Position numbers and translations under genes: made by a program. Of a stretch of DNA of 64,000 nt, positions 3,067-62,700 are shown piece after piece. The notes under the pieces are model-generated. The model ran no database searches, was not told the DNA's origin, and was given only the letters and a program-made list of their open reading frames with translations. How positions within the stretch are numbered: position 1 is the first letter of the stretch; each line of letters starts with the position of its first letter. The stretch is from Protoeuglena noctilucae (Eukaryota): positions 1,860,001 through 1,924,000 of the forward strand of contig OY253668.1 of the NCBI GenBank assembly GCA_958009085.1, written 5' to 3'.

Positions 3067-3976
3067 ATGCCGAAGAGTTTGTGTCACCACCGACTGGCCA
3101 AGGAGCTCAAGGTGACAGTCGCCCAGCTGCAGAAAGTGCCGTGAAGCAGCAGCGCCTGCGGGGGGGCACCGAGCCCCACTGCTGCGCGTGCCCACCCTCG
3201 CAGGACTTCGCCCGTGACGCGCACCCTGGCGTGTTCGCTGCCCCGAACCCCGACAACATCCTCGAGTGGCATTACGTCTTCGTCATCACGAACGATCCGT
3301 CTTCGCTGTTCTACGGCGGGGTTTACTATGGACGTGAGACCCCGCTCACGCTGAGGCCCTGTTGCTCCCTGCGCCACCCCGTGCCGCGCCCGGGGGTGTC
3401 GACTGCGTACCTGTTGACGCCCTCTCCTTCTCAGAGCTTCGTTTCACGGATGAGTACCCCAACAAGCCGCCCAGCGTGCGGATGGTGACACCCTCGGGTC
3501 GCTTCGAGCCGAGCAAGGATATCTGCATGTTGCTGACGAACTTCCACCCGGAGAGCTGGAACCCGAGCTGGAAGGCCGCCTCCATCCTCACTGGCCTGCT
3601 GAGCTTCATGCACGACACGGCCGTCTCGACGGGCTCATTGTCGCCGGACCCCGCCACGTGCCGCCGCCTGGCTGCCGAGAGCCTGGACTGGAACGTGGCG
3701 CGGTGTCCGCGCTTCCGCGAGCTCTTCCAGGAGAGGATACCCGGCTGGCGCGACGAGTGCGCCAAGTGTGCGAGCGGCCCGAGCACGTCGGGCGCGGGGG
3801 AGCAGAGCACGCCTGCACCGGCGGCCACACCGGCAAAGGTGCCTGAGGAGCGCCATGGCGCGCGCCTTGCAACATGGGCCATGCACGGGTCGGCCCAACG
3901 AGCTCTGGCTGCGGTGGCCGCCGCAGTAGTGGCGATGGGCGCGGCGTGGCTCTGGAGATGGCGTTGGGCCGAGTAG
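3067..3976 (+). CDS. UBC6: ER tail-anchored ubiquitin-conjugating enzyme E2 (UBC6/UBE2J2 family)
   Basis: 3 exons: MPKSLCHHRLAKELK / PNPDNILEWHYVF...GGVYYG / YPNKPPSVRMVTPSGRFEPSKDICMLLTNFHPESWNPSW...ILTGLLSFM. Active Cys intact; C-terminal hydrophobic anchor. Confidence 0.93.
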
Positions 3977-6640: not shown

Positions 6641-9600
6641 TCACGACAGCTCTCCCTCCTCCCCCTGCCTCGCGCCGTTCCGCGCTGCCGCCCCGCCGCT
6701 GGCCAGGTCCCTTGCCAGCTCCTTCGCCACGTGCTCGGCGTCCGCCACCTCTGGCAGCACCACCACGTCAGAATCCCCGGTGTCAGACGCGCCTCCCTCC
6801 CACGTCAGATGGGGCCTGTCTGACGTGTCGCCGTCCTCCGCGTAACCCCCGGCGCCACCCGCTGCGTTGCTCCCGGCCTCGGCAGGCCCACCGTGGCCGT
6901 TGGGCCCCGCCACCGCCTGGCCCCCCCGCCCCGACGCCGCCCAGTACTGAGTCAGGTTGCGGTCGTGTGCGAGCGACTGGGTCGGCGACCTGCACGGGCA
7001 AGGCACAGAGGATCAATCATCAGCAGGCCTGCGAGGCGAGGGGCACCGGCGCAGCAACGGTACAGCCGCCGATTGTCGCGTGCATGTGCGCCGTCACCGG
7101 AAGTAGTTGAAGGGGGTGTATCGCAGGAAGTTGGACACGCGCGACGTGTAGATGTCGGCGTACTTCTCGATCTGTCGCGCCAGCTGACTCTGCGAGGACA
7201 CCAGGGGCAGTCGGCGGCAGCGTGTCGTGATGGCAAGAGCGCTCTCGCTCTGAGCTGCATGTTGCGGCACGTGACTCGTGGCAACACCGCTCTCTGCACA
7301 CGCATCCATCCCGCATCCGCTCCTCGCCTTGTCGTTCAGACCCGCCCGCGACAGGTACCCCCACTTGCGGCTGAAGTGCTCGCCGTCGGCCTGCATCATG
7401 GGCGCAATGCGCGCATCCAATGACTCCATCAACAGCAGGAACTGCGCCAGCGTGTCGTTGATCTGCTTGTCCTCCTCTGGGCTCAGACGCCGCCCGTCGC
7501 CCCCCGTCAGCTTCCTCTGCTTGAACAGCCGGATCTGGTTGAACACGTCCCCCAGCAATTCCTTGTTGTTCATCAACTCCTTAAGCCTGCGACGGTGCTC
7601 GCGGCCCCGCGCCAGCGCCTCGATCTGCAGGACGAGGAATTGAAGACACCGTCACGACACACGGCCGTAATGACGTGTGACGAGACCTCATGCCACGCCA
7701 CGCAGACAGTGCCACCTGCTGCCATCCAGTCATAACCCACCCCACCATGCCATGCCTTCCATCTCCCCCCCACTTGTCGCCCCCGCCCTCACCTCCTCCT
7801 CCAGCTCCCTGATGATGAGCGCCGTCCGCCAGCGCATGTTGAGCTTGGCCAAGGCGTTGTCCGTGTAAATGTGGTCCCCCACGTACATAATGTCGTCCCC
7901 ACGCAGGCCCAGGTACTCCTCCACCATGCGCGCCGAGCCACCGCAGAAGACACGGCCACGCACCAGCCGGTGCTCCGGCACGGAGTTTCTGGCAACTGCG
8001 CCCCCGCTGCTCCCGGCCGGCTGCAGCCCCGCGGGGCTCATCCCCATCACGGGCCGCATGAGGCCGTCCTCCGTGACGATTTGGAAGAGCGGGGAATTTT
8101 CCTTGAAAAACACCGGCTTGCGCGCCTGGACGATGATCAAGTCAAACAGGTCGCGGTACGTCATGCCCTGAGTGGAAAGGACAGCAGAGGGAGAGGGGTG
8201 GGACATGCAGACGGAGGCTGCGAGGGACATGGGTCATACGCTACGCGCATGCCCCAGCCCTCTTCACACCACAGCCAGTGCCTCCGGCACAGCCCACATG
8301 CCCTCTTCACACGACACCACCCCCCACACGCCAGCCCTGTCAAATCACCTCGGGCAGGTAACGATCGTAGGCGAAGGACATGAGCTTGTCCGTATAGGCA
8401 AAGTCCGAGTTGGTGATGAGGAGGAGCTTCTTGCCCGCGCCCTTCTGGTCCAGCAGCGTCAGTGCCAACTCCGGATCCAATACCACGAACTTCTCCGGCT
8501 CGTCCATAATCTCCTGCTTCAGCTGGCTCTCCACGTGCGCGTTGAACAGCGCCCTGCGTGGGAGACATAAGCGTGGGTGGATGGGTGCACAAGGGTGTGA
8601 GTCGGACAGCGCTTTGCGAGGGAGGCGTGGGTGTGGGTTGAAGAGAGAGTTTCGGAGAGAGGTAGAGAGCGGGTGGATGATGGCGAGGGTGAGCGTTCGG
8701 GCCACCCTTGCGTGACCCGGCAAAGCGAGGGTCGTAACGGTGTGCATTAACCGCGGGGAAAATCCCAAGCCCCGCGCTGCTGCGCCTCGCTCACCTCCCG
8801 ACGAGCGTGGCGAGTCCCTCGTAGCTCAGGTACTGCGGGCTGAGCTGCCCCAGGCAGCCCTCATCCAGCCGCTGCACGAGCTGCTGGTAGATGACCGCCT
8901 CAGACACGCTGAAGAGGGTGTTGAGGAATTCGTATCGATCCTCATTGCGGAGATTGACGTACTCGCGGCCGTAGACAGCATGGATGTCGGCGGGGGACAT
9001 CATACGGCCCCCGTGCATGGCGCGCTTGACCAGCCCAAACCTATCGACCTTGATGAGGTTGCCCAGGTGCTTGTCGACGATAAGGCCGCGGATGACCATC
9101 TCGGGATCGAACTCGAGACCCTCCGTGTTGACGCCCTGGGCCCTGGGGGCGCAAAGCATGGCACGAGGGTTGTGGTGCAGGGTTGTGCCAAAGTGGCCCG
9201 TGCTCGCTTGTCGCCTGCAACCTGCACCGCACCTAAGCCATCGGACTGAGTAGTCGTAGGCGCGCCCCTCCCACCGATTGACGTCGTACTGCAGCAGCGT
9301 GTAGTCCATGTCGTAGCCAATCGCCCGGATCGACCGAAGGTTGAGCGTGCGGGAGCAGTACACTCCCCGGTGGGGCGTGCCCCCAGGGTACGTGGGCGTC
9401 ACGCCGAGCTCGTGGAGCATGGCGTTCACGCGCTCCTTCAGTTGGGCGTGGCTCATACCCAGCAGCTCGTCACGCGTCGACGCCCCCAGCGCCTTCACCA
9501 CACCCTCCGTGCTGATGATCTGCACCAGCGCCAAATCCCCAAACGTCGTCTCTGCACGAGGGAAAGGATGGGGGCGCAGGTCGGCGATGAGGTCGAGCAT

Positions 9601-9836
9601 CGCGGATAGTAACAGCGATAATTGCGAGCAGGCGCACCTCCGAGGTAATCCACCGCCACGTCCCGCTCGTCGTCGACCTGCTCGAACAGAGGCGTGTCCC
9701 ACATGCCGCCGTCCGCAGGCCGCCAGTCCGCCGATTTCGCGCGGCAAACGAGCCCTGTGCGCGCTGTGCGCGGGGGCGGCGCGGCGCGGCGCGCGGCCGG
9801 CGCTCGCGGGGCCCGGGCGGCTAGCGTGATCGCCAT
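6641..9836 (-). CDS. HAD-superfamily subfamily IG 5'-nucleotidase (cN-II-like), plastid-targeted
   Basis: CSRTLNLRSIRAIGYDMDYTL (motif I), LLITNSD, ARKP, YVGDHIYTD, WRTALI, YADIYTSRVSNF. Ala/Arg-rich transit peptide MAITLAARAPRAP. Confidence 0.93.
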
Positions 9837-10310
9837 CGCGGCCGCGTCCGGTCTCTGCGACGAAAGGGCGCGCGAACCGATTGGCTGGACGCGCCCCGGC
9901 GGGCCGCGGGCATGCCGAGTGCGTCTGGGTTTTCGCAAGGGTATCTACGGCCTGAGAGGATGGGGGCCGCATCGCCAGCATGCGCATTACGCGAGAGGTT
10001 CTGCAAGCGTGATGCGCAAGCTCTGAACGGGCACCAAGGGCGCACATCGGGCTGGCCAGCCACACACCTAACGGCAAGCGATGGGGATCCCGCCACCCTG
10101 CGCCTCCTTGGCCTGATGACGTTGACACACCGCGTGAAAATGGCACTGCACTCACGACGGCCGACAGCGACACAACGATCAGAGTCTCCTGCCAGCCAAA
10201 ACCCGCCGTCTTGCAGCGAAGTTTCACTGGCAATTTTCACCGCCGCGTTCATTCGATTTGCTTGCGCAGCTGGCCGGCAGTTCGTCTGTTCGCACATGTG
10301 TCTCATCGGG

Positions 10311-11236: not shown

Positions 11237-14088
11237 TCACCGGGCCACGCCCTCACGTCTGCGGAGCTTGCCTTGCCGGTCGGGGTTGGCGGGTGGCGTG
11301 CGGACCACTTGGTCGGCTTGTGGGGCGGAGCTGATGCCCCCCACGGCCGCCTCTGCCACCTGCGCCGCCTCTGAGCTGATGACCAGGTACCCTCCCACTA
11401 AGTCGCTCCGAGCCGCATTGTCACCGCAGCACGCCACCGCCAGCGCCGCCCCCAGCACCGCCCCGTCCTCGCAGACCGTCAGGCGCACGCGCCGCGCCTG
11501 CTGAGGGCCCAGCACCATGCGCAGGCCGGCCATGAAGGCCCTCCTGCGAGCCGAGAGGAACAGTGGGGTACATGGCTAAGTTCTAAGGCTCCAAGCGAGT
11601 ACTCAACCGGTCACTACATGCGTCTCAAGGTCGCTTTCACCGCCGCATCAGCAATGCGGCATGGCCACCCACGAACGCGCCGTCATTCACCTGAACCGCT
11701 CGTTGTACCGAATCAGGGACCCCTCCGCCCCCACCAGCACCTCCCCCTCCCCCTTGAGCGCCTCGGTCTGCTCAATCGCCGCCGCCACCGCCGCTGCCCC
11801 CAGCCGCCCCGCCCGCTCCAGCACCAACTGGCAGATGCGCTGCACGTGCGGCCTGGGGCGAGGGAGACGCTCGATATGACGTAATTCACTCAAAGTAAGG
11901 CACCAGGTACTACAATCAGTCGCACGGATCCCACGTATGGAATCACAACCCATGGCAATTATCGCTGTTGCTTCCGCTGCCGCAACGTGCATTACACTCA
12001 GCCTAACCCTGGTCCCACCTCTCACCGCATGAATTTGGGCATCTCCGCCCCGAAGCTCTCCTGCACCTGCCCCGCCACCTCCGCCAGCTCCTCCGTCACG
12101 TCCGCGGCCATGCGCCCCACGTGGGCGGACGTCAAAAGATCCCTGCCGCTCTCCAGGCGCACAGGTACCTCCCACCGAGGCATCTCCTGGGGCCGGAGGG
12201 TCAAATTAAGATCACTTTCACGACAGGTCGAGCGACACGGAGCAGACCGGGGCACATGTAGTACTACACAGTGGAGCCACTGTGGCGCAGAGGCGCGGCA
12301 AGTACAGACTTGCCGTCCCATCACAATGACGGCATGCAACGAGGCCCTGCTCACCGCGGCAGCTGCCCTCCACATGCGGTGGATCAAGCGCCGCGCGACC
12401 TCCCCCAGGTGCATGCCGGAAATGAGCTTCTCGAAACGCCCCGTGCCGTGGTTGTGCGACGCCTCGTCCACGCGCGCGTCCTCTTGGACGGTGGGCAGGC
12501 AGTCGTGCCTGGGAAGGGAAACGAGGCTGGACATGATGCAGTCACGATGGTGGGGCTAACCCCGACGCTCACCGGTGGTGCAGCTTTTCTTCCACCACAC
12601 GCTGGGTTGTTGCCGCGACACAGCCTGCACGGCTCTGCTACCACCCGCACCCCGCCCACAGCCTCACCAAAAGTCAGCCCACTCTAGGCTGACAGACACC
12701 ACATTCAAAGCCTCACCAAAAGTTGGCCCACTCTGCGTTGATGAGCATCTCTTGGCCCCCACGGTATCCCTTCAGCTTCTTAATGCGGTCCGCCTGTTCC
12801 ACGTACGACATGTTGGTGCCCGTGCCGAAGATGGCCGCCACCTTCGTGGGCCCGTGGCAGTACTGGGAGCTGAGCAGCGGCGTGAGGGCGTTGTTCAGAA
12901 TAACCTCCACCTGCGGTCCGGGAAGAGCGACCGGCTCCGTCGCCCTGGTGTCGCACGCGGCAACTGCAATGCCACAATGGCTGCGCACACTGCCGCATAC
13001 ATCATGTCCACCCAGGCCCACTCGACCCTGCCCAACTCCGCCCCACCAAACTGCGCCCCATGCGGCCCCACTTGCCTTGGCGGACGTGCCTGAGTCGTCC
13101 AGAGCCCGCTGCAGCATCTGCACCGCGTCCTGCCCGACGGCCCCGGAACACTTGTACCCCTTGGTCCAGTAGAGGAGCTCCCCCGAGTGGCAGTCCTGCT
13201 GGCGCATCGGGAAGCTGAAGCTGAACCCCACCCGCGCCACCTCCGTCGGATCCCCGTGTCGCTCAATCATCTTGGACAACTGGAGGGCCAGGTGCGCGAA
13301 GAGGTAGCTCGCGGGGGCCAGGAGCAGGTTGCCGGGGACTGCGAAGCGACGCGAAGGGAGGACACTCGCACTGCCGCCGCGATGGATCGGGCCGCCACGC
13401 GACGCCACTGCGTCTCGGCTGCGCACCCGTGCCCTCCTCGACGACGATGCGCGACACCTCGCGGTCCCGCGGGCCCAGCTCGACCATGGCGACACGGAGG
13501 TTGGTGCCGCCGAGGTCCAGAGCGTAGTACCGGCCGCGCTCCTCTCCCGTGGGTAATCTGCGTGATTAGCCGCGCATGAACGCTCCTTACGAAGCTTCAG
13601 ATTGCCCGCTGGCGCTCCCTGGAATCCGCGTCGCGCGACTCACCGGTCCACGTAGGACGGAAGCATGTGCAGCATGGCGTCCTCCTTTTCCAGGCCCTCC
13701 CGCATCTCCCCGAGAACCTGGTCACGAACCATAATGAGCGCCTCGCGGGCGACGCGCATCACATGTTCGAGCTGCGAGAAAAGGGCCGGCGAGGTGGCAC
13801 GCAAGTTGTTGCGCGCGGGGGGGGGGCGTGGCGTCGGCGGCACCCCGGGCCCTTCATCTCGGACGTCAGTTCGAACCATGAAGCGCCAAACCGATCGCTG
13901 CCGGTCCCCCGATACGCGCGGAGGGAATGTGGCTGGGGACTGACGGGGGATCCGCGCATCCTCGCCTCGTCGACGACGCGCTTGGCCGCCCTCCGAGCTC
14001 TCAGGTAGTCGCTGACGAGAAGCGCTCCAAAGGTGGCCACCGGGGTGGCCACCATGAAGAGGACGAGCGACAGCGCGCGCCACGGCAT
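11237..14088 (-). CDS. HXK: Hexokinase-family protein with N-terminal membrane anchor; catalytic Asp absent (hexokinase-like)
   Basis: MLPSYV, ALDLGGTNLRV, GFSFSFP, WTKG, GTGTN, INAEW, FEKLISGMHLGEVAR, EDGAVLGAAL. N-terminal hydrophobic segment ALSLVLFMVATPVATFGALLV. Confidence 0.92.
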
Positions 14089-14375
14089 GACGCCCCCTGC
14101 GAATCCCGAGACTCGCGCACGTGCGTCAGCAATATCACTTCTCGAAACCTCAGCGCTTCTTGCGACAGAACTCCGCGGCAGATGTGAGCGCGGCCGTGGC
14201 AGGGAAGCTCCAGGAGGGAAGGGGAACTGAACTGGCCAGTCAGAAACACCGGGTTGCACCCGCGAAGGCGTTTCTCAACCCCTTTCGGCATCGATGCGGA
14301 TCGGTCAGATGAGACCGCGAAGGGGGACTGTGGTGCTTGGTGCTAGCGAGTCAACAGGCCGGGGCGGGAGCGAAA

Positions 14376-17257: not shown

Positions 17258-17462
17258 GCGCTCGTGGAATTTGCGCCTGTCCACCCAGCGATACCTAGCG
17301 AGGACGCGGCCACGCAGCCAAGCGCGCACGCAGCGTCAGCCGCTCGCCGACCCTCCCGTTCCCCCGCCTGTTGGCCCACCCGGCACGTTTGAGGCACGTT
17401 GAGGCACGTTCTGTCCACCAGTTTTGCCAATTTTGAACTTTTTTTCCACGAGAGAAGAGAGT

Positions 17463-18943
17463 TCATCCATGCGCATGCAGCAGCCCCAGGGCCTCCAGCT
17501 CCCGCATGGCGCCTGCCTCGTCCACCCTTTCGACATCGAACTTCTGCGTAGAGTAGAAGAAAGCCTTGAGCATGCACCCATTGAGCTGCTCTGCGACGCG
17601 ACAGCCCGCGTGCTGCCCACACCGCGCTTCGCAACACACGAACCAAGCCCCCCAATCCTCACCTTGGCAAGTGGGACGTCGTCGCCTTCCTCGTACGATG
17701 CGTACGCCTTGACCTTGGAGGACAGGCGCCACCCAAAGGCCCCCTGCTTGTACACCAGCACGTTGTCGTACCCCGCGTCCCGGGCCATGGCCGCGGCCCA
17801 CACGGCGCGACGGTTGGTGCGGCACTGCATGACGACCGGCTCGGAGCGCGAGGGCCTGGGGAAGCGGTAGCGCTTCAGCCAGGCCTCCGAGGACATGTTG
17901 AGGGCCGCGGGGAGCTCCTCCACCGGGACGTGCCAGGTGCCGGGGATGGCGCCAAACAACGACCGCTCGTCGTGGCGCCGCACGTCCAGGACGGTGGCTG
18001 TCGCGTGGGCGGGGAGGGAGCCCTGCCCCAAGAGCAGCGCCAGGGCGTCGCGGTTAATGAAGCGGGGAGGGGGTGGCTCGGCGCTGCGGGGCGGGGGCGG
18101 GGTGGGGGTGCAGGCGTCGACTGCGGCACGCACCCCATCCACCCCCTGACGACGCAGCGACCCGTCATCTGCGCCGCGCCGCCATGTGCGTCACCTTTTG
18201 GATGCCCACAATGCCTCCAGACCCCCCGCCAACACCCCCAGGAGTCGGAACCCACGCCCGCTGGCCACTTGTGCTGCATGGTACATGTCCGCGTCACTGT
18301 CGGAAACAAAGACTGCGCGTGCGAAGACACTCAAAAGCGACTGTCGGCGACGCGGCCTGGGCCTGGTCGCGGCCTGGTCGGGGGCCCAGGGCATCGACGG
18401 TCGCGAGGCTTGATGCGCGCAGTGAGTCACCAAGAAAGGTGCCGTGGTCGGGGTGCGGCACGGGGCCTGCGGGCCAGCGCTTCGCGTCCACGAGCGCGTC
18501 CCCGAGCGCCGCAAGCGGCACGTGCGTCGCGCGCAGCTCCGAAGCGCTTCGCGACGTGGAGGCAGCCTCTGGCCTGCGTGCACGGCGCTCGTCGCGCTGC
18601 AGTCGAGCGCCGGGGCGCCTGCGCGCGGCCGCAGCGGGTCTGCGAAGCGCGCCGCCTTGCCTGACATCAATCACGGCGTGCCGGATGGGATCCTTCTCCT
18701 CGAGAGTGCGCAGCTGCGAGACCGAGATGGGGAACGCTGGTCGAGAGAGCAACGAGAGAGCATCGGCTCGCTGCCCTCGTTGCCAACGCAGTCTTTTCTC
18801 TCGCTCACCGCGTCCGGCGACAGGGCGGGGACGCTGCCCCGCTTCTCCGCGGCCACGGACTTGGCTGCGTCGCCCGGCCCGCTGTGCGACGTCGCGGAGC
18901 GCAGCCGGCGGATGAGCCATGCGATGCCCGCGACCACGAGCAT
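17463..18943 (-). CDS. Tandem rhodanese-domain protein with N-terminal hydrophobic segment
   Basis: Domain 1: ISVSQLRTL...VIDVR...THVPL...VFVSDS...GF..LGVLAGGLEA (no Cys). Domain 2: VLDVRRHDE...GAIPGTWHVP...VVMQCRTNRRA...AGYDNVLVYKQG..GW. The start may lie further upstream. Confidence 0.8.
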
Positions 18944-20216: not shown

Positions 20217-22003
20217 ATGGAAATTCTCGCCTCGGCGTGCATGGAGGCGCTGGGGACGGAGGAGGAGCGGCTGGGACCCCGGCGTAGGGCCGCTGCAGCC
20301 GCGAGGTGGGAAGCCGCGCATCTCCCGCGCGCCGGGGCCCTTCGCCCCGAAGACGCCCGATGCGGGTAAATGACTCCCTCGTCCTTCCGTCGGCGTCGCC
20401 CGATCGCGCGATGGCCGAGGCGCGCGCGCGCCCGCGGCCCCGGAGGGTGCGCGCCAAATCCAGCCTTGCCCGCGGCCCCCGCCCGCAGGAAGGTCGTGGC
20501 GGCCGAGGCGGAGTCCTCGCCGAACTCGTTCAAGAAAGAGCGCAAGAAGGGCGTGGCGTGGACCGAGGAAGAGCACCGCCGCTTCCTCCTGGGCCTGGAG
20601 CGCCTGGGCCGGGGCGACTGGCGCGGCATCGCCAAGCACTTCGTCACCACGCGCACCCCGACGCAGGTCGCGTCGCACGCCCAGAAGCACTTTATCCGCC
20701 TCAACTCGTCCAACAAGCGCAAGAAGCGCGCCTCCCTCTTTGACATCACCGGCGTCCAGGAGCCCACGCCCCCGGCCCTGGCCACCAAGCTCGCCCAGCA
20801 CCGGCGAGTGCCCGCGAGCTCGCCGCGCGCCCGTCGTCGCGGAAGGTTGCCCTTGCCTCTCACCGCCAGGCCCCTGCCCTGCGCGCAGGTCGGACGGTTC
20901 GCACGACCCCTCGGAGCAGTCGGAACCCCCGCCCTGGGTGGCCCCCTGGGCGGGCGCGCCCCGGCGGCCGAGGAACCAGCGCATGCCGGTGGTCCCTCCG
21001 TCCGAAGACGGGATGGAGGAGGAGGACGAGGACGACGACGAGGGGCCCTCGGCGTCGGGCGGGTCGGGGCGGGGCGCCTCGCCGTCCCTGGACGAGGGCT
21101 CCCTCTCGCGCGAGCTCGACACCGTGCCCATGCGCTCCCCGGCCGCGCCCAGCACCCCGCCGCCGCTGGGCCAGGCGCTCGCGCGGCGCGAGCCGCCCCC
21201 GACCGTGCCCATGGGCCCTGCCGAGGTGCCCCAGGAGGGCTACTGGGTGTCGTACGTGCAGCAGCCGGACGGGAGCGTGGTAGCGGTGCGGGGGGTGCCC
21301 TTCATGGTGCCCGACCCCGCGGGTGGCTACCGCATGGTCGTCATGCCGTCCCCGGAGGGCCTGCCCCCGCTGGCCCCCGGCATGATGTACCACTGCTCCC
21401 TCGCGCCCCTGTCCGAGGACCCCGGGGCCAAGCCGGCCCTGTCCGTCGTGCCGTGCCCCTCGCACCTCGCCCCGGACGCGGCAACCAAGGCGAGTTTCCG
21501 CTCGGCGTGCGTGGCATGTGGCACGCCAGGTTGCGCATAGCTGCGCTTCACCAATAGTCGCCCTTGCTTCGCGCCACGCAGGTCGCGGACCCTATCGCGG
21601 CGCTGCCGTCGAGCCTGGCGATGCCGCCGCCCCCGCCGCGGGTCGCCTCGCCCCCCCAGATCCTCACGCCGGCCAAGACCGCCGCCACGCACGCCCCGCG
21701 GCTCGTGAGGCCCACCCCGGTGCTCGCCCGCCCCACGCCCATCCGGTGAGGCCCGGGAGCGAGCGGCATGAATGTTTAGCGTGGCCCACTGTCCCCGCGG
21801 GACGCATCAGCGCCCCCGTGCCCACCTGGCGCCTTCCTCTCCACCCACGCAGACTGCAACAGACAGACGTGCTGGCGTGTGCCGCGGGCGAGGGCCTCCC
21901 GCTCACGGCGCGCCTCCTGGGCCTCGGCCCGGCCAAGACCGAGGACGAGCAACACACGGACGAGGACGACGGGGTTCTGCCTGCCGTGGTTGCCTGCGTC
22001 TGA
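20217..22003 (+). CDS. MYB-related SHAQKYF-class transcription factor (single repeat)
   Basis: [55 protein letters not shown]...RASLFDI; acidic and Pro-rich C-terminal exons. Confidence 0.9.
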
Positions 22004-42289: not shown

Positions 42290-45200
42290 ATGGGGCGGCC
42301 CCCTCGGGACGATGAGCCCGGTTCCGGGAGTCCCGTGGCGGGGTCAGATGGCGATGGCGCAGAGGGTCCCGAGGCGGAGGTCCCGTGGGGCACGCTGGGC
42401 ATCACGGAGCTCGACAGCCGCATTGCGGCTCTTTTCATGAACCTGGGCCGCCCCCTTGGGTTGATGACCGCGGCCGAACTGGCCCGGGAGCGACTCAAGC
42501 AGGCGACGTGGTGCGTGGAAGGCCCGATGCTCACGACTCTGCAATCGTCCCCCGGCGCCGCCTCCCTCTGCACTTTGTGTGACTTCCCGGCCGCAGGGAG
42601 GACGAGAGCGCGCCCTCGAAACCCTCCAAATGGCGTTGGAAAGAAGAGATGGGCCCGACGTTCTCGTGCCACCCCGACGGCCCCATCGCCAGGCTGGTCA
42701 GCAGGGCCAGGGAAGCGCACCGGCGGGACGAGGGCGAGGACAAGGTGTGGGTGGCAGTATTGCAGGTGTAACCTTGGGCAGGGCATACAGCGCAGCACAG
42801 GCCGTCACACCCGCCATGCACGTAACTGCTGATGGAAACCTCTTCCTGGTCTTTGCTCTGACTTGCGCGAGTCCCGCCCGCACAGGAGCATGACGCTCCG
42901 GCCGAGGAGCGGCGCGCGAGGCCGCAGGGGCCAGGGTCCAGCGCACACGGCGCTGTCGGCCCGGGCGGGGGCGTGAAGAGCGAGGTCCTCAACCCAGGCC
43001 AGGGTCTCTCGCCCAGCGTGGACCCTTCCCAGGCGCAGAATGGAACCGAGACTGGTGCTGAGGCAGCTTTGGGGGAGCCTGGGGCGGAGGCGGAGGTGGT
43101 GGCAGTAACGGCTTACGGAAGCGTCGTGTCGCGCTCGCGCGCGGGCCCGGCGTCGTCGTCGAGGGGCCGCTTCGCCTCCAAGCCGCTCACGCCCCGGTGG
43201 GGCATGCTGCTGGAGGCGGTGGCGGAGCAGGTGCAGGCGCAGCCGGCGGGGGCCACGGCGCCAGCCGCCAAGCCTCACGTCGCCAAAGGCGACGTGGGCC
43301 CGCTGGAGCGCTTCCGACGCAAGGCCATGCGCGTGGTCGTGGTGATCGTCGAGCACCGGTTGTTCGAGTGGGCCACGGTGGCGGTCATCGCGGCCAACTG
43401 CGTGACCCTCGCCCTTTACAAGCCCCTGGAGCCCAACTCGGAATGGAACAAGTGAGTGCGCATTGCTCACTATCACCGACGTTGCCCATCCCACCTGCAC
43501 CGTCACCACTGCCTGTGTTGCCGGCACCGCTCACATCGACTGTGCCCCTCGCCTCACCGCACCGCCCCTCGCCCCTCCCAGGCGCTTGGAACTCGTGGAG
43601 CTGGGTTTCACGGGCCTCTTCACCCTTGAGGTCTTCCTCCGCATCCTCTACCGCGGCGGGATTGTCCCCTTCCTCCTCCGGCCCCTCAACTCCTTCGACG
43701 CATTCCTGGTGGCCGTCGGCTACCTCTCCCTCGTGCCCTCCACCACCCGCGTCCCCGCCCTCCGCGCCTTCCGCACCCTCCGCGTCCTCCGGCCCCTGCG
43801 CAGCATCTCCCGCGTCCGCAGCCTGCGCTTAGTGAGCCTGTCGTTTGTCGCCTCCGTGCCGCTCCTACTCCAGACAGGCCTCCTCCTGGCATTCATCCTC
43901 GTCGTGGCGGCCGTCATCGCCATGGACCTCTTCCACCAGGTCTACCACCACCAGTGCTACGACCCAGTCACGCAGACCTGGGAGGTCGGGCAGGGCGCGT
44001 CGCCTGACGAATTTGGCTGCGGGGGTTGGCGCGACTGCCCGGCCGCATACCCCGTGTGCGCCGACCCTGGCCTGTCCCAGGGGCAGATCCAGCAGGGGTA
44101 CGCCAACCTCGGCACGGCCTTCATGAGCGCCTTCCAGGTCATCACGCTCAGCAACTGGGACGCCGCCATGTATCGCGTGGTGGACGCCACCGACTGGGCC
44201 GCCATCATCTGGTTCATCGGCCTGGTGTTCCTGGGCACCTACTTCGCCCTCAACCTCAACTGCGCCGTGCTCAAGGTCCGCTTTTCCAAGGAAAACCTCG
44301 CCATCATGGAGACCAAGCGCAGGGAGCGCGAGCAGAGGGCGGCGGTGGCCGAGCAGGGAGTGCAGCGCGCGAGGGGGCGCTTCAAGGACCTTTTGGCTGA
44401 GAGGAGGCACCGGGTGAGTCGGGCAGAGGGCTGTTCGTGCATGTCGCGCGTGGTTGCGTGCGCTGAGCGAGTGTCGGCGACTGCGGCAGTCAACCTCGCG
44501 CATGCGTCGGTCACCGCGCATCATCCTCTACGCCTGCTTGCCATGCAGGCGGCCCGGGCGGCGCTCGGGGACCGCCGGGGCGCGTCGAAGGCCCTGCTGG
44601 CGCTCAACTTGATGGCCGGGGCCCAACAGGAGGAGGAAGCTGGGGAAGGCAACGAGGAGGTGCCGGAGGCACAGGACGAGGACGTGGGCCGAGGGCGCAT
44701 CGCATTGCTGCGGGCGAAGATCCTGGTGGAGAAGCGCGCGTGGACCCGGGCGTGGCTCCGCATTCGTTTGGCCCTCCTGCGCCTCTGCTACAGCCGCTGG
44801 TTCGGCCACTTCATGTTCGTGGCCATCCTGCTCAACCTGGTCGTCCTCGCCATGGACTCGCCCCTCAACTCCGCGAGCCTCGAAGAGAAGCTCAACAGTG
44901 AGTGGCGTGGCATGGCTTCTGCTATGCTGGTATGCGTGCTCGCTTGATACGGTGCGCCGACACGCGTCCCTCCCTCTCACCTCTCCCCTCTGGCCTCTCT
45001 CTCTTGTCTGTCGCCTTTCACCTCTCTCCCCTTACCTCTTCCGCTCCCGCAGTCATCAATGCCACGCTCACCGCGCTCTTCGGCGCCGAGGTCCTCGTCA
45101 AGCTCATGGGCATGACGTGGGACTTCTTCAGCGATCGCTTCAACATTTTCGACTTCGTCGTCGCCCTCCTGTCCGCCCTGCAATACGGGCCCCTCCCGAG

Positions 45201-48200
45201 CCTGGGCATACGGAGCCTCCGTGCCGCACGCACCATCCGCGTTTTACGTGGACTGCGCGTACTCCGCATGGTCCGGTTCTTCCAGTGAGCGCTGGACCGG
45301 GGCAGGAAACGCTGCTATTTGATTTTCTCGCTCGGAGCCCCGCTTGCTTCCGCCCGTTGCGCTGCCTCGCGTGCTGCAGTAACTCTTGCCCTTTGCTTAC
45401 TGGTCGCAGATACATGGGCACGCTGCGCAAGATCGGCAACATCATCTCGCAGTCGGCGAGCATCTTCGCCAGCGTCTTCATGCTCCTCTTCATCCTCATG
45501 CAGACCTACACCATCCTCGGCCTTCACTTGTTCGGCCACGTGACCATCTCACCTGACGCGCAGACGACCAGCAACTTCAACAACTACCCCCGCGCCCTCG
45601 CCACCATCTTCCACGTGAGTCGAAGCAGCGCACGCGAAGCCGGGAGAGATTTCAGTGAGGCTTATCGAGCTTGTATGAAGGTCAGCTCAGCGCTTGTCAG
45701 ATTTGAATCGTCGATGCGTCTCTGCAGGTTCTGTGCCTGGACGACTGGGAGGTGGTGATGGCTACGTACCGCGACCAGGTCGGCTACGGCTGCTGCGTCT
45801 TCTTCATGAGCTGGGTCGTCCTGGGCAACTTCGTGTGCCTGTCGCTCTTCCTCGCCGTGGTCATGGAGGCGTTCGAGTCCAAATACGACGTACAGGCGAG
45901 TGCGAGAGCGAATTTGTGACAATAATGGTCGCATAGACTTACCAGAGATGTACTGAGCGAGGGCTGGGAATCCCAATGCTTGGTGCAATGTGGTGCCGTC
46001 GATGGTCGCTGCGTTGCAAGCGACCGATAAGATACTGTTCATTAAACAGATCCGAGCATATTGCTTGCTATTCGCAGACCACAAACGAGATTAAGATCCT
46101 CGTGGTGATCCCCTGGGTCAAGCATCAGCTGCAGGCGGCGACAGAGAACATGGCGCACGCGGACGCCCTCGCATCGCGCATCACGCACAAGGCGCAGGGC
46201 GTGCTGGACTTCATTATGCAGAAGAGCGGCATGGCGCAGAGCCAGGCGGCGGAGAGCGAGGGGCAGGGAGGGGACCGGGGGGAAAGCAACAGAGAGGGGT
46301 GGGAGCAGGGGGGCGGGAGCAGTGCGGGGGCCAAGGCCCCAGGTTGCGAGGGCGTTGGGGAGGCTGCGGGGGTGGATAAGGGGACGGATGTGGTGCAGCC
46401 ACTGGATGGGAACGCGGGGGACGGGGTGGGGGATACGGGGGGGTCGGAGGGGCGCCGTCTGACACAGCTGTGCCAGTCTGAGGGACGCAGGGGGGTGGGA
46501 GAGGGCGCGGGAGGCGCGGGAGCTGACATCGACGGGCCCATGGCTACGCGGGCTGTCCCGGCGGGGGTGCTGGCGGCTGCGGTGGGTGGTACTGCGGGAG
46601 CGGTGGGGGCGGAGCAGGGCTCGCCGAGGGTGCGCGGGAGTTGGTCGGGAGTGGTCGAGACACGGCAGATAGAGTGGGCAGCCAGGGGAGCGGGGCGGGT
46701 GGCGGCGGGGGTGTGGCGGTGGGGGCCGCGAGCATCGCGGCTGACACGCCACCGCCACTGGGCCCACTCCCCGTGGTGCGGACGACGGGCGGGGTCTCCG
46801 ACATGCCACTCATTCGAAGAGTGCCTGGCGACGCGCCGGGACCGACGCCGCCCCTCGTGGGGGCACTGGGGGAGGGTGCGGGGGATGCGGACACACCCGG
46901 GCCACGGGAGGGTGCGGGCGAGGGTGGGGGCTTGTCAAGGGACCCGGCGAGCGACGCAGCGGAACCGCGGGGCACTCCCTCGCCGCATCCGGGCATCCCG
47001 GGGCCAGCGGGGGAGCCCAGGGTGTCAGCGCCGCCGCGCGTGTTGGGCCGGGGTGGGGCAGCAGGGTCGCCTTCACCCCTCAAGGGGCTGAGAGGGACCC
47101 GGGCATCTAAAAATAACGGTTCTGCGAGGACGGGTGCGCCGGGTCCGGTCGCGGAAGGGCTGGAAGAAGACTTCGCACAGAGGCATGGGCAGGGGCCTGA
47201 GGGTTGCGAAGAGGCCAGCCCCAGGTGTCGAGATGGAGGCGAGGGGCGGGTGCGCTCTACCCTGCGTGCCCCGTGGCGTGAAGCCAGGGGTGTGCGTGGG
47301 AGAGGGTCTGCGGTGTCCTTAGGACCGGCGGGGCCGGTGGCAGAGGGGCTTGAGGCTGGGAATGAGGCTGGGCATGAGGGTGAGCGGGGCGCAGAGGTTG
47401 GGGTGCCGGAGCGGGTGAGGGTGGCGTGGGGAGCGGGGAAGAAGGGCGGGGGTGACGGGGGAGGGCAGGGAATCCTGCGGCCTGGCAAGGGTGCGCAGGT
47501 GCACCCCGGGGATGGAGCGGTGGGGCAGGCGGGAGGCGCGGCAACGGGCCCCGCCAGCGCACCGGGTCCTGCGAGCGCGGCGGGTCGGCCGAAGAGTGCG
47601 GTGAAGAAGACAACGGCGCGCAAGGCCAGCCGGCGGCATGTGGCGGTGGTGGCGCCAGAACCTGGGGCGGCGCAAGGGGCCAGGGAGGAGGAGGAGGTCC
47701 GTCGGCCTCGTGGCGTGGCTTGGGCGGACTCGGGCGCGAGTCGCCGAGCCATGGCGGCGTTAGTGCGGTCGGTGTCTCAGTCGGCGTCACGGGCGTTTGA
47801 TCGGGCCAACAAGAGCATGGCCGCGACGTTGCTGAGGGACCTGGAGGCGATTGGGATGGAGGTGAGCGGTTGTTGTTAATGTGCATGCGAACGAACTCGC
47901 AGAAGGTTTGCAATAAGCAGACGGATGGGCGCGGAGGGGCCAGGGATACGCGGAGAAGGCACGACACATGTGCGACCCTCCCTGCTCCTGCTGTCTCGCA
48001 GGCCAAGTCTCTGCGGGGCCGGACGTGGGCGGAGCCCGCGTCGCTGACCAAGGCGCAGCGGGGCTTCCGGAACGTAGCGATGAGGGCGCGGGTGGCGGCG
48101 GCGTTTGGGGACGCGCGCAACAGGAAGGGCGACGGTCAAGGGGAGGAGGAGGAAGAGGGACGGGAGCGTGGCATCCGGGCCTTTTTGTCCATGGCTCGCA

Positions 48201-59706: not shown

Positions 59707-62700
59707 TCAGATGCTCCCTAACGCCCCGAAAACCCTGCCGGGCCTGGAGATGACCCCGTCGGGCCGCGCTCGCGTGGCCACGAATGTGCAACTGTCGTTG
59801 TCGACGCCCCTGCGGCAGCGGAACGGCGCATCTGTGGGTTGGACTGCGTGATGTTGCACAGAACCCAACCACACCCGCAATGCCCGACACCCGTCGCCCC
59901 ACTCACCACAGCCCGACGCGCCAGCGGGACGGGTCTCCCGACTCCCCCGCCCAAATGGGTTCCCCTCCCGCCACGGCGGCCTCGAAGCACAGGTCCTCCC
60001 GCACGCAGCGCACGGCGACGGACCGGGGCTCCTCGAGCCGCGGCACGGCCACGCATCCGAGCGCCACGTACCCCGGGGGAGGCACCGGCTCCCAGAGCGT
60101 CACGGCGCGGCCCGGGAGGGACGCGTCGCGCCAAACGAGCAGGAAATCCACGGGCGCGGCGAGCCGCGGCGCGTCGGTGCCCAGCTCGACGTCGTCGCGC
60201 ATGACGTAGACGGGCTGCTCGGGCTCCTGGTGGCCGTAGACGAGCACGTCGCCGACGCTCGAGTAGCCCGCGGGGGGCACGGGGCGCCAGACGCTGAGGG
60301 GCGGCCGGCCCGTGCGGTAGTCCTGGTCGCCACGCCACTGCAGGCGGTAGGCGAGGCAGGGTAGCCGCCCCGGGCAGAGCTGCGGGGACCCGGGGGGGCT
60401 GTCGGACACCGGAGCGTCCGCGGGGGCCGCGGCGCTGCCGAGCGGGGGCGCCCGCGACACGTGGGGCGCCACGAGGTGGTCGGAGACCCATGTGTCCTGG
60501 GCGTGGCGCCGACGCACGATCTGCAGCACGCGCCGGGCGACCACGGCGCGGTTGGTCCCGGTTTTGAACCCCACGGCGCGCGACAGCGTGGCCCCCGCGC
60601 CGCCCTCGCCGCCCTCCTGCCCCAGCAGCCCGCTGAGGATCCACCCTCCCGCGTCTTCCGCAGATGCCAAGTCGAGTCCCTTCAGGTGCAGCACGAGCAC
60701 GTCCGGGGGCTGCCCGGGCCCCGCGGAGGGGCTCATGCGGAGCTCGAGCGCGAGCACGTCGACCCATGGCGCCTCCCACATGGGAGCCACGCGGAGGAGG
60801 CGGGGGTCGTTGCCAGAAACGTCGAGGGCGCCGGCGTCCGGGGCACGCACGAGGGCCACGCGGAGGTTGGTGGCGACGAGGATCTGCTCGTGCGTGACGA
60901 CCATGTGCCACTCGTACCCCTCCGCGGCCATGCGGTGGGCCAGGAGCGTGGCGGCATCCACGCGAGCTTCCGGCAGGGATGCCGCCATCGCCGCCTGCTG
61001 CTCAAACATGGCCAGCACCACCGCGGCGCCCACGGACTCGGCGTGACTGCGACGAAGGAACGCGGGGCGGGCATGGCTCTTTGCGAATCTAGACAGGCAG
61101 TTGAACTGAGAGCACCGCACATCGATGCGAGCCCAGGACAGTCCTTGCCTGTACGGCCGAGCGACGCCGTCCCCGGTGACGACCCTGGGGAGTCGCTTCC
61201 TCGGCGGCACAGCGGGCGCCGCGCCCAGCGTCTCTTTGATGTCCTTTACGGTCCCTAAGGCGCCCTCGGCTGTTCGCGACACCAGGTCGATGGCGCCACT
61301 CACGGGCTGCGTAACCACGCCCACGAGGCCCTTGGCCACGCCGCGCGCGAAGCCGCGGAAGCCCTGCTGCGCCGCGCCCTGCGGAGGAGAGGGCGGGTCG
61401 GATGGCGTGGGTACAGGCAGCGCGGGGGCTTGAAGGCAACCGCGGGGACTGCATCGAGAGAATGGCATGGAGCGGGCGTGACATGGTGACAGCTAAGGAT
61501 CAACGACTCGCATGCTTTGCATCGCATGTCAGCCCAATCCACTCCACCGCAAGTGGGCCCGCTCTGCTGTGCCTCTCGCCTCCATAGGTTTGGTGAGCAG
61601 CCCCGTAACGCCCCTCCAGACGCCCTTGGCGAGGCTCTCGCCGCCCGCGGCCACCCCGGACGCGAGATCCGTGACCTGGCCCCTCTGGGCGCCCTGGGGC
61701 CGGAAGCCCTGGTCCATGGCCAGGCCCGACACGACTGACGCGAAGTGGTCGAGCACCCGCGTGGCGCCCTTGCCCCAGGAAGCGGCGAAGAGGACCTTGG
61801 ACCATTGGCTGAGGAGCTGCCGGGTGATGTGGCGCCACAGCCCGGCGACGAGGGCGCTCTGCCTGACGAGCTGCTCCCCTCGGGTCACGCCCAGCAGGCG
61901 CAGTCGCACTTGCTCCAGGTTGGCGAATGCCATGCTGATGCCCAAACCGAGGCCGGCGAGGCCCGCGCGGAAGGACTGGGGCCGCGTGGACTCATCGGAC
62001 GAGAAGGTGATGACCGCGGGGAGCGGCTCAAGCCGGAGGATGCCCAGTCGCACGACCGGGTCCGAGGCAGCGGCGGCGGTGGTGGGGCCGGCGCTGGGGA
62101 ACACCGCGGCGAGGGAGTTGGAGAAGGAAAAGAGGCGCCAGACCAGGGGCTCGTCGATCATCAGGTGCGGACCGCCCACGACCTGCGATGGAAGGTGGGT
62201 GGGCGAGCGCAGTGGGTGGGTACGGGGTGGGATGAGGTGGGCAGCGAGTGCGGAAGTGGCATACAACGGGGTAGCACATTGTAGATACGTGGCGAAGGAG
62301 GGGACTCGCCTGGAGTAGGAGGAATGGGACGTGCGTGACGGCATGGGTGCGGGTGGAGGTGTGCTGCACGGACACGCTCACGGCCGGCCAGGCGTCGTGG
62401 CAGGGCTCGGGGCGGACCCAGTGGAGCGCGACGGGGTGCGCGGTGCGGAGCATGTTGTCCACCTGCGAAGGGACGGGGCGGGGGGTGGGCGATTGTCAAC
62501 CTCATGATTGTTGGCAGGGGCGCACTGGTGGTGAGCATGGGTGATTATGGGCGTGGTGGTGGGTTAGTGTTAGCAGCGCCGAGCGTCGGCCCAGTGCCAC
62601 CGCTCGTGCAGCAGGCGGCTAGCGACTTGCCTGGAGGCTGTGGAGCGACGCCCGGAGGCGCGTGCTGGCCTGGATGCCTAGGCCCGTGCGAAGGTGCACT

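Follow-up and report, generated by a model that had tools for sequence, protein, structure and literature searches.

The window analysed here is a stretch of 64,000 nucleotides of Protoeuglena noctilucae DNA (assembly GCA_958009085.1, contig OY253668.1, positions 1,860,001 to 1,924,000), and all coordinates below are counted from its first letter. On the minus strand, from 14088 to 11237, it carries a hexokinase-family gene of nine exons and 540 codons with an unbroken frame, in which asparagine (Asn222) stands where hexokinases have the aspartate that acts as the general base. The original prediction, made from the letters of the window, had proposed a hexokinase with exactly this replacement; Pfam matches, alignment and splice joints in RNA contigs all identify a genuine, intact and expressed gene of this family.

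The gene model was built from open frames and splice-site consensus and then checked against metatranscriptome contigs, which set the boundary of exon 1 (end 13966) and changed the protein from 547 to 540 amino acids. Splice joints were found at 8/8 modelled introns (eight in contig set X11, six in X9), which bears out the frame predicted to be intact across exons. Lack of expression was to have spoken against the prediction, and the X9 and X11 contigs demonstrated that the gene is transcribed and spliced. A third RNA run, X10, held 0 splice joints, and several stretches had no RNA cover and give no evidence on those parts. Introns 1 (13772-13965) and 4 (12911-13075) are RNA-confirmed GC-AG introns and the other six are GT-AG. 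Except for one short self-match, no further copies of the eight introns occurred within the window, which gives no sign there of introner-like repeats. The transcript begins at position 14175 or higher, and the ATG at 14088 is the sole in-frame Met of the open frame 13759-14274, with none further upstream in that frame. The coding sequence has a strong codon bias, with a GC content at third codon positions (GC3) of 0.885, and the GC content of the window is 66%. The features of the gene are as follows.

11237..14088, minus strand: whole coding sequence, ATG at 14088 and TGA at 11239-11237 (sequence, coordinate-built model, RNA joints, Pfam Hexokinase_1/Hexokinase_2)
14089..14175, minus strand: 5' untranslated region, minimum extent (RNA contig X9 record 16 reaches 14175)
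13966..14088, minus strand: exon 1, 41 codons, a hydrophobic anchor-like segment with basic residues behind it; GC donor at 13965 (joint 13771/13966, with CT..GC ends, in X9 and X11)
13644..13771, minus strand: exon 2 (RNA joints; Hexokinase_1 positions 6-48, 21.1 bits, under the curated cut-off)
13427..13557, minus strand: exon 3, phosphate-1 loop DLGGTN, with D98 at 13517-13515 (RNA joints; Hexokinase_1, 43.4 bits)
13076..13338, minus strand: exon 4, FSFP and WTKG, with K187 at 13162-13160; GC donor at 13075 (RNA joints; Hexokinase_1, 75.2 bits)
12717..12910, minus strand: exon 5, LNNALTP, GTGTN and EWANF (RNA joints; Hexokinase_2, 45.1 bits)
12890..12892, minus strand: Asn222 codon AAC at the position of the general-base Asp (sequence; alignment to HK1 D657/D209; DNA and RNA contigs)
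12355..12508, minus strand: exon 6, FEK, with E306 at 12432-12430 (RNA joints; Hexokinase_2, 39 bits)
12026..12186, minus strand: exon 7, variable region of the large domain (RNA joints; alone without a Pfam match)
11691..11852, minus strand: exon 8, GAEGSL, with E428 at 11725-11723 (joints in X11; Hexokinase_2, 34.8 bits)
11237..11543, minus strand: exon 9, EDGAVLGAAL loop, low-complexity tail of about 65 residues, and stop (joint in X11; Hexokinase_2 positions 210-242, 18.5 bits, under the cut-off)
11459..11461, minus strand: Ala467 codon GCG at the position of the DGSG-loop Ser (0 differing letters in X9 record 15 and X11 record 9)

Two features of the introns were also observed. Intron 4, at 165 nucleotides, is in frame and free of stops, and is partly read through by the low-depth contig X10 record 4 (12747-13058), which may represent unspliced RNA or DNA carry-over. 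The end of exon 5 and its GT donor are repeated 49 nucleotides downstream within intron 5 (12660-12734; a 26-nucleotide self-match at 92%), with an identical 14-mer at the donors 12716 and 12667. RNA contigs splice at the first donor; splicing at the second (12667) would shift the frame.

Active-site residues and N-terminal segment

The motif LNNALTP had been predicted with AAC AAC GCC at 12895-12887, and the minus-strand sequence matched this exactly. From 12910, at the start of exon 5, it reads GTG GAG GTT ATT CTG AAC AAC GCC CTC ACG CCG, translated as V-E-V-I-L-N-N-A-L-T-P. The second Asn of the motif is residue 222 (12892-12890), and it paired without gaps with Asp657 in the C-half and Asp209 in the N-half of human hexokinase 1 (phmmer). 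In a MAFFT alignment with 148 other single-domain family members, this column read Asp in 144 proteins and Ile in 3, with one gap and 0 Asn. The 148 are every protein of 380-700 amino acids among P0001-P0170, with 22 excluded by their length, most of which are tandem or fused.

The role of this residue is described for several hexokinases. Asp205 of glucokinase, named as the catalytic base in the original prediction, is the general base to which the 6-hydroxyl of glucose gives up its proton (PMC2706991), in agreement with that claim. Asp211 is given as the catalytic base of yeast hexokinase (PMC6460350), and in human HK2 the Asp is reported as required for catalysis, with diminished activity in a D209A/D657A double mutant (PMC5803496). 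Where a catalytically competent hexokinase (EC 2.7.1.1) has the general-base Asp, the window gene has Asn222. The original prediction adds that loss of this Asp (given as D230 in AtHXK1) leaves signalling intact; catalysis-independent signalling by AtHXK1 was reportedly shown with other mutants, G104D and S177A. The three Ile entries in the catalytic column are a Drosophila hexokinase paralogue group (P0022, P0023, P0024) whose branch is very long (1.63); it also has Pro in place of the DGSG Ser, and represents a further natural loss of the base.

The Asn codon could also stem from a mistake in sequencing or assembly, or from an allele of low frequency; we consider this very improbable. Confirmation of the codon had been called for, and AAC was found at the contig level in independent DNA (X2) and in RNA (X9, X11). 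Specifically, positions 12887-12895 are unchanged in X2 record 12, a DNA contig from a separate study (depth 226) that holds the entire stretch in one piece with 0 differing letters, and exon 5 is covered with 0 differing letters by RNA contigs X9 record 16 and X11 record 11. On the other side, this support comes from assembled contigs and not raw reads, and one matching DNA dataset may be the window's own source.

The residues that hold the sugar and the phosphates were retained. The motifs listed as kept in the original prediction (DLGGTN, FSFP, WTKG, GTGTN and FEK) are all present, and the phosphate-1 loop DLGGTN (98-103) and phosphate-2 loop GTGTN (244-248) agree fully with the consensus of the family. 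Alignment showed that all hexose-contact residues are kept (T186, K187, N221, N248, E275, E306), their roles being taken from the equivalent glucokinase residues (PMC2706991). Further sugar- and phosphate-holding residues kept are D98, G100, G101, T102, N103, R105, G244-N248 and K307.

A second substitution affects the C-terminal DGSG nucleotide loop, where a competent hexokinase has Ser and the window gene has Ala467; Ser occupies this position in 134/148 family members and in 3/3 subfamily relatives. Judged by the motif, Ser411 of glucokinase is probably the same Ser as residue 467. The hydroxyl of Ser411 bonds the ATP alpha-phosphate (PMC2706991). Exon 9 alone gave only chance matches against PDB (phmmer, E at least 0.018), leaving the DGSG Ser without a PDB residue number.

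The original prediction had also listed drift in other ATP-site motifs. The variants AEGSL, EDGAVLG and EWANF are indeed present; as drift of this gene they were not supported, as most are common to relatives that keep the Asp. The three closest relatives (P0001, P0002 and P0012, described below) all retain the Asp, in LNDALGP, VNDCLGP and VNDALAP. Throughout the subfamily the Thr next to the Asp is replaced by Ala or Cys, and a Pro stands in place of the Thr three residues later; in all three Asp-bearing relatives EWG reads EW(A/S)N and DGSG ends in Val instead of Gly. Glu for Asp in xDG is shared with P0002 and 7/148 family members. Most of the motif drift is thus a subfamily trait and not evidence of decay in the window gene. 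Across 73 columns conserved at 85% or more among 145 non-subfamily rows, the window gene departs from the consensus at 13, compared with 12 for P0001, 14 for P0002 and 18 for P0012. The departures unique to the window gene are Asp222Asn, Gly225Thr, Ser467Ala and Ala475Val. At the ATP site, judged by the alignment, only Ser467Ala adds to Asp222Asn.

The membrane anchor claimed in the original prediction has a counterpart in a hydrophobic, anchor-like N-terminal segment. Residues 7-25 (14070-14014) have a Kyte-Doolittle 19-residue mean of 2.14 and are followed by an R/K-rich stretch. The same test gave 2.19 for a Chlamydomonas hexokinase and 2.74 for a Citrus hexokinase, and weaker values for the relatives P0002 (1.34) and P0012 (0.91); the P0001 model begins too late to include the segment. 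From this hydropathy we infer that the window protein may be membrane-anchored, in the manner of type-B-like hexokinases.

Relatives and phylogeny

Both Pfam hexokinase domains, PF00349 Hexokinase_1 and PF03727 Hexokinase_2, were found in proper order along the protein. Exons 2-4 cover Hexokinase_1 positions 6-181, and exons 5, 6, 8 and 9 cover Hexokinase_2 positions 1-242. When the eight exon pieces (exons 2-9) were searched separately, five exceeded the curated cut-off, exons 2 and 9 fell short of it, and exon 7 was without a match. PDB hexokinases matched the window protein down to E = 1e-30 (phmmer). The closest protein in the collections searched was P0001 (582 amino acids), with 48% identity over 434 columns, followed by P0002 from Pedinophyceae sp. 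YPF-701 (38%) and P0012 (36%).

The window gene, P0001, P0002 and P0012 formed one clade, with support of 98 in FastTree (94 rows) and 100/99 in IQ-TREE (37 rows). In the IQ-TREE analysis the land-plant hexokinases (Cucurbita, Citrus, Oryza) were a separate clade (99/96), as were the canonical chlorophycean hexokinases of Chlamydomonas and Gonium (100/100), and the window gene does not descend from within the land-plant HKL clade. This separation indicates an independent origin, as the original prediction had proposed for the loss relative to the land-plant HKLs. The four members share the motifs ND[AC]L.PL and EW[AS]N and the Val that replaces the last Gly of DGSG (an x-x-S-V loop). On these sequences the clade is a divergent, uncharacterised algal hexokinase subfamily, so far comprising a pedinophyte green alga and marine sequences. 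With a pedinophyte as its only named member, with matching runs labelled marine, and with GC-rich (66%), intron-bearing eukaryotic DNA in the window, a green alga is the probable source.

A profile of the three relatives, searched against 1.84 billion representatives, recovered 5842 family members, of which only the three query clusters exceeded 700 bits; public data therefore contain few members of the subfamily. The next profile scores came from two-domain or canonical proteins; P0027, P0028 and P0029, ranking there, are tandem or other-type hexokinases and were rejected as subfamily members. Word-index searches gave no closer orthologue than P0001 among the matches listed, and two of these searches also missed known relatives. 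A single locus obtained from 472 metagenome pattern matches (L001) proved to be a canonical animal-like hexokinase with INDTVG and was irrelevant. The 90%-identity clusters of P0001, P0012 and P0030 hold 11 members, and the atlas annotation of P0001 reads only 'hexokinase family'.

Branch lengths showed no rate acceleration of the window gene. Its end branch in the IQ-TREE analysis equals that of P0001 (0.6 each), and root-to-tip distances within the clade are 1.34 for the window gene, 1.25 for P0001, 1.09 for P0002 and 1.85 for P0012. These values bear on whether the gene was recently disabled and is turning into a pseudogene that is still transcribed and spliced with no selected function, an explanation we find unlikely. 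The nine-exon frame is intact with 8/8 splice sites working, the GC3 is high, and the gene retains 60/73 family-conserved columns, a number matched by its relatives, on a branch no longer than that of P0001. Moreover, all or nearly all sampled words occur in DNA runs of two separate studies (2016; 2023-2025), with 0 differing letters in X2. The matching metagenome and metatranscriptome runs are labelled marine. Consistent with a decaying gene are the two active-site losses, a substitution that could be recent, as the collections searched contain no close orthologue, and a non-synonymous difference in one low-depth RNA contig. The last is an A>G change (plus strand) at 11707 in an X10 contig (depth 2.8), turning Tyr into His within SLIRYNERF in exon 8, which could reflect an error or variation in the population.

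A second anchor-bearing hexokinase group (P0030, P0013, P0051), drawn from ENA, Logan or unlisted sources, carries NDTVAT, with a D-A-S-V loop in P0030. In the IQ-TREE analysis further sequences are its sister, and the combined group is in turn sister to the Chlamydomonas-type clade. The group may represent the canonical hexokinase of marine picoalgae.

A putative hexokinase-like pseudoenzyme

On balance, and with moderate confidence, we read the window gene as encoding a hexokinase-like pseudoenzyme, a protein that would fold, bind glucose and probably nucleotide, sit anchored in a membrane, and have lost most phosphoryl-transfer activity. In this proposal, a single G-to-A change in this lineage would have turned the general-base Asp into Asn222, and the Ser of the DGSG nucleotide loop would have become Ala467. 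With the hexose contacts (Thr186, Lys187, Asn221, Asn248, Glu275 and Glu306) and the phosphate loops DLGGTN and GTGTN retained and the base and loop Ser lost, the protein would be expected to keep its fold, to close around glucose and probably to bind nucleotide, and phosphate transfer would be slower by orders of magnitude. We infer both the loss of activity and the retained glucose binding from the residues kept and replaced. Two independent hits on catalytic and nucleotide residues amid otherwise normal conservation are what would be expected if selection on catalysis were relaxed and selection on the fold were kept. By analogy with AtHKL1 and the non-catalytic hexokinases of fungi (PMC2755033), and with the scaffold functions that HK2 has independently of its kinase activity (PMC8850586), the protein could have a regulatory, sensor or scaffold role.

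The main competing explanation is that the window gene encodes a working hexose kinase in which Asn222 is tolerated because a different base, or proton transfer assisted by the substrate, takes over, maybe at low turnover; we regard this as possible, if doubtful. The hexose-contact and phosphate-loop residues are all kept, the gene is expressed and spliced, and there is no rate acceleration relative to its Asp-bearing relatives. Asn retains hydrogen bonds, and calculations on glucokinase describe a second path for the proton (PMC2706991). The subfamily has an unusual DGSG loop, yet its other members keep the Asp. A tblastn search of the 64-kb window with six hexokinases matched only the window gene, revealing no second hexokinase, canonical or otherwise, in this stretch. 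Against a working kinase, Asn occurs at the catalytic column in 0/148 relatives, and the Asp is called required in human HK2, glucokinase and yeast (PMC5803496, PMC2706991, PMC6460350). In addition, a second nucleotide-site residue, Ser467, is lost in the window gene only, which fits relaxed selection on catalysis.

Several points weigh against the pseudoenzyme reading itself. The activity and binding that it ascribes to the protein are predictions from sequence, and assembled contigs hide minor alleles at Asn222. The glucokinase calculation describes a higher-barrier route in which the sugar proton passes directly to the gamma-phosphate (PMC2706991), and Asn can hydrogen-bond the 4- and 6-hydroxyls; residual kinase activity is therefore possible. 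A working enzyme would be just as compatible with the equal branch length and the normal conservation, and the non-canonical nucleotide loop of relatives that keep the Asp means that standard residue rules may not fully apply. Were the window gene the sole hexokinase of the organism, a dead enzyme would be less likely. HK2 D209A also weakened stabilisation by glucose (PMC5803496), and the Asn form need not bind the sugar. Finally, word-index, profile and metagenome searches found no close orthologue, the nearest relative being only 48% identical, and the substitution could be recent.

If the pseudoenzyme reading is correct, the window gene is probably an independently arisen example of a class that is already known. 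Non-catalytic hexokinases are reported from Arabidopsis, S. cerevisiae and A. nidulans (PMC2755033). Like the window protein, AtHKL1-3 have the hexokinase fold and an N-terminal membrane or mitochondrial anchor (predicted in the window protein), and they are without kinase activity (PMC2755033), whereas inactivity of the window protein is a prediction only. AtHKL1 and AtHKL2 are predicted to still bind glucose, and AtHKL1 is regulatory; the inactivity of the AtHKLs is ascribed there to many changes and no single residue (PMC2755033), whereas the window gene has changed at the general base and one loop Ser. Unlike the AtHKLs, it lies in a clade apart from land-plant hexokinases. The fungal non-catalytic hexokinases (HxkC/HxkD of A. 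nidulans and a meiosis-specific factor of S. cerevisiae, cited in PMC2755033) are likewise natural and regulatory, but belong to a different kingdom and are more diverged.

Engineered kinase-dead human HK2 (D209A/D657A) is altered at the same residue as Asn222, which is also that of glucokinase Asp205 and yeast Asp211. Such HK2 mutants, impaired in activity, serve to reveal non-catalytic scaffold functions (PMC5803496, PMC8850586). The engineered forms carry a laboratory Ala, whereas the window gene has a natural Asn with hydrogen-bonding capacity. The canonical green-algal hexokinase (Chlamydomonas/Gonium, P0019/P0020) shares with the window gene the fold, an N-terminal hydrophobic segment and a probable green-lineage origin. 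It differs in having NDTVG and DGS(S/G) and a clade of its own, compared with ND[AC]L.PL and the x-x-S-V loop of the window subfamily. Glucose signalling via HXK1 is described in Chromochloris (PMC6753101).

Non-catalytic hexokinases are the main evidence, in plants and fungi, that sugar sensing is separable from sugar metabolism. In the window gene the change is nearly minimal (general base to Asn and one loop Ser to Ala), with the hexose pocket otherwise intact and the gene transcribed in the sea. Should the protein bind glucose without turnover, it would offer a clean natural model, in a unicellular phototroph, of what hexokinases do apart from catalysis, and a first way into an algal hexokinase subfamily so far uncharacterised. 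Should it be active instead, the 'invariant' base of the family would be dispensable. The searches made found no literature on non-catalytic algal hexokinases, which is not proof of absence, and nothing relevant for prasinophyte hexokinase either. A more far-reaching proposal is that the window gene is the organism's only hexokinase-family protein, that the ND[AC]L.PL subfamily consists of unrecognised membrane-anchored sugar-binding regulators of early-branching marine green algae, and that the Asn222 form is a 'pure sensor' without catalysis, a natural counterpart of the engineered kinase-dead hexokinases. We consider this improbable.

Genomic surroundings and a possibly fused family member

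The neighbouring genes are unrelated to hexokinase by Pfam. Most long open reading frames of the window had no Pfam match, as expected at 66% GC. The following were identified in the window, all by Pfam.

3338-3976: ubiquitin-conjugating enzyme (UQ_con)
8791-10236: 5'-nucleotidase family
17336-18190: rhodanese
20370-21557: Myb DNA-binding
43406-45758: ion-transport channel, two open reading frames
59903-61492: Vps62-like

Atlas matches of the ion-channel open reading frame were spread over mixed eukaryote phyla. Among the collected hexokinases, P0017 (JGI, 652 amino acids) carries PF02781, the C-terminal domain of glucose-6-phosphate dehydrogenase, before two hexokinase domains, which suggests a glucose-6-phosphate dehydrogenase-hexokinase fusion or a merged gene call.

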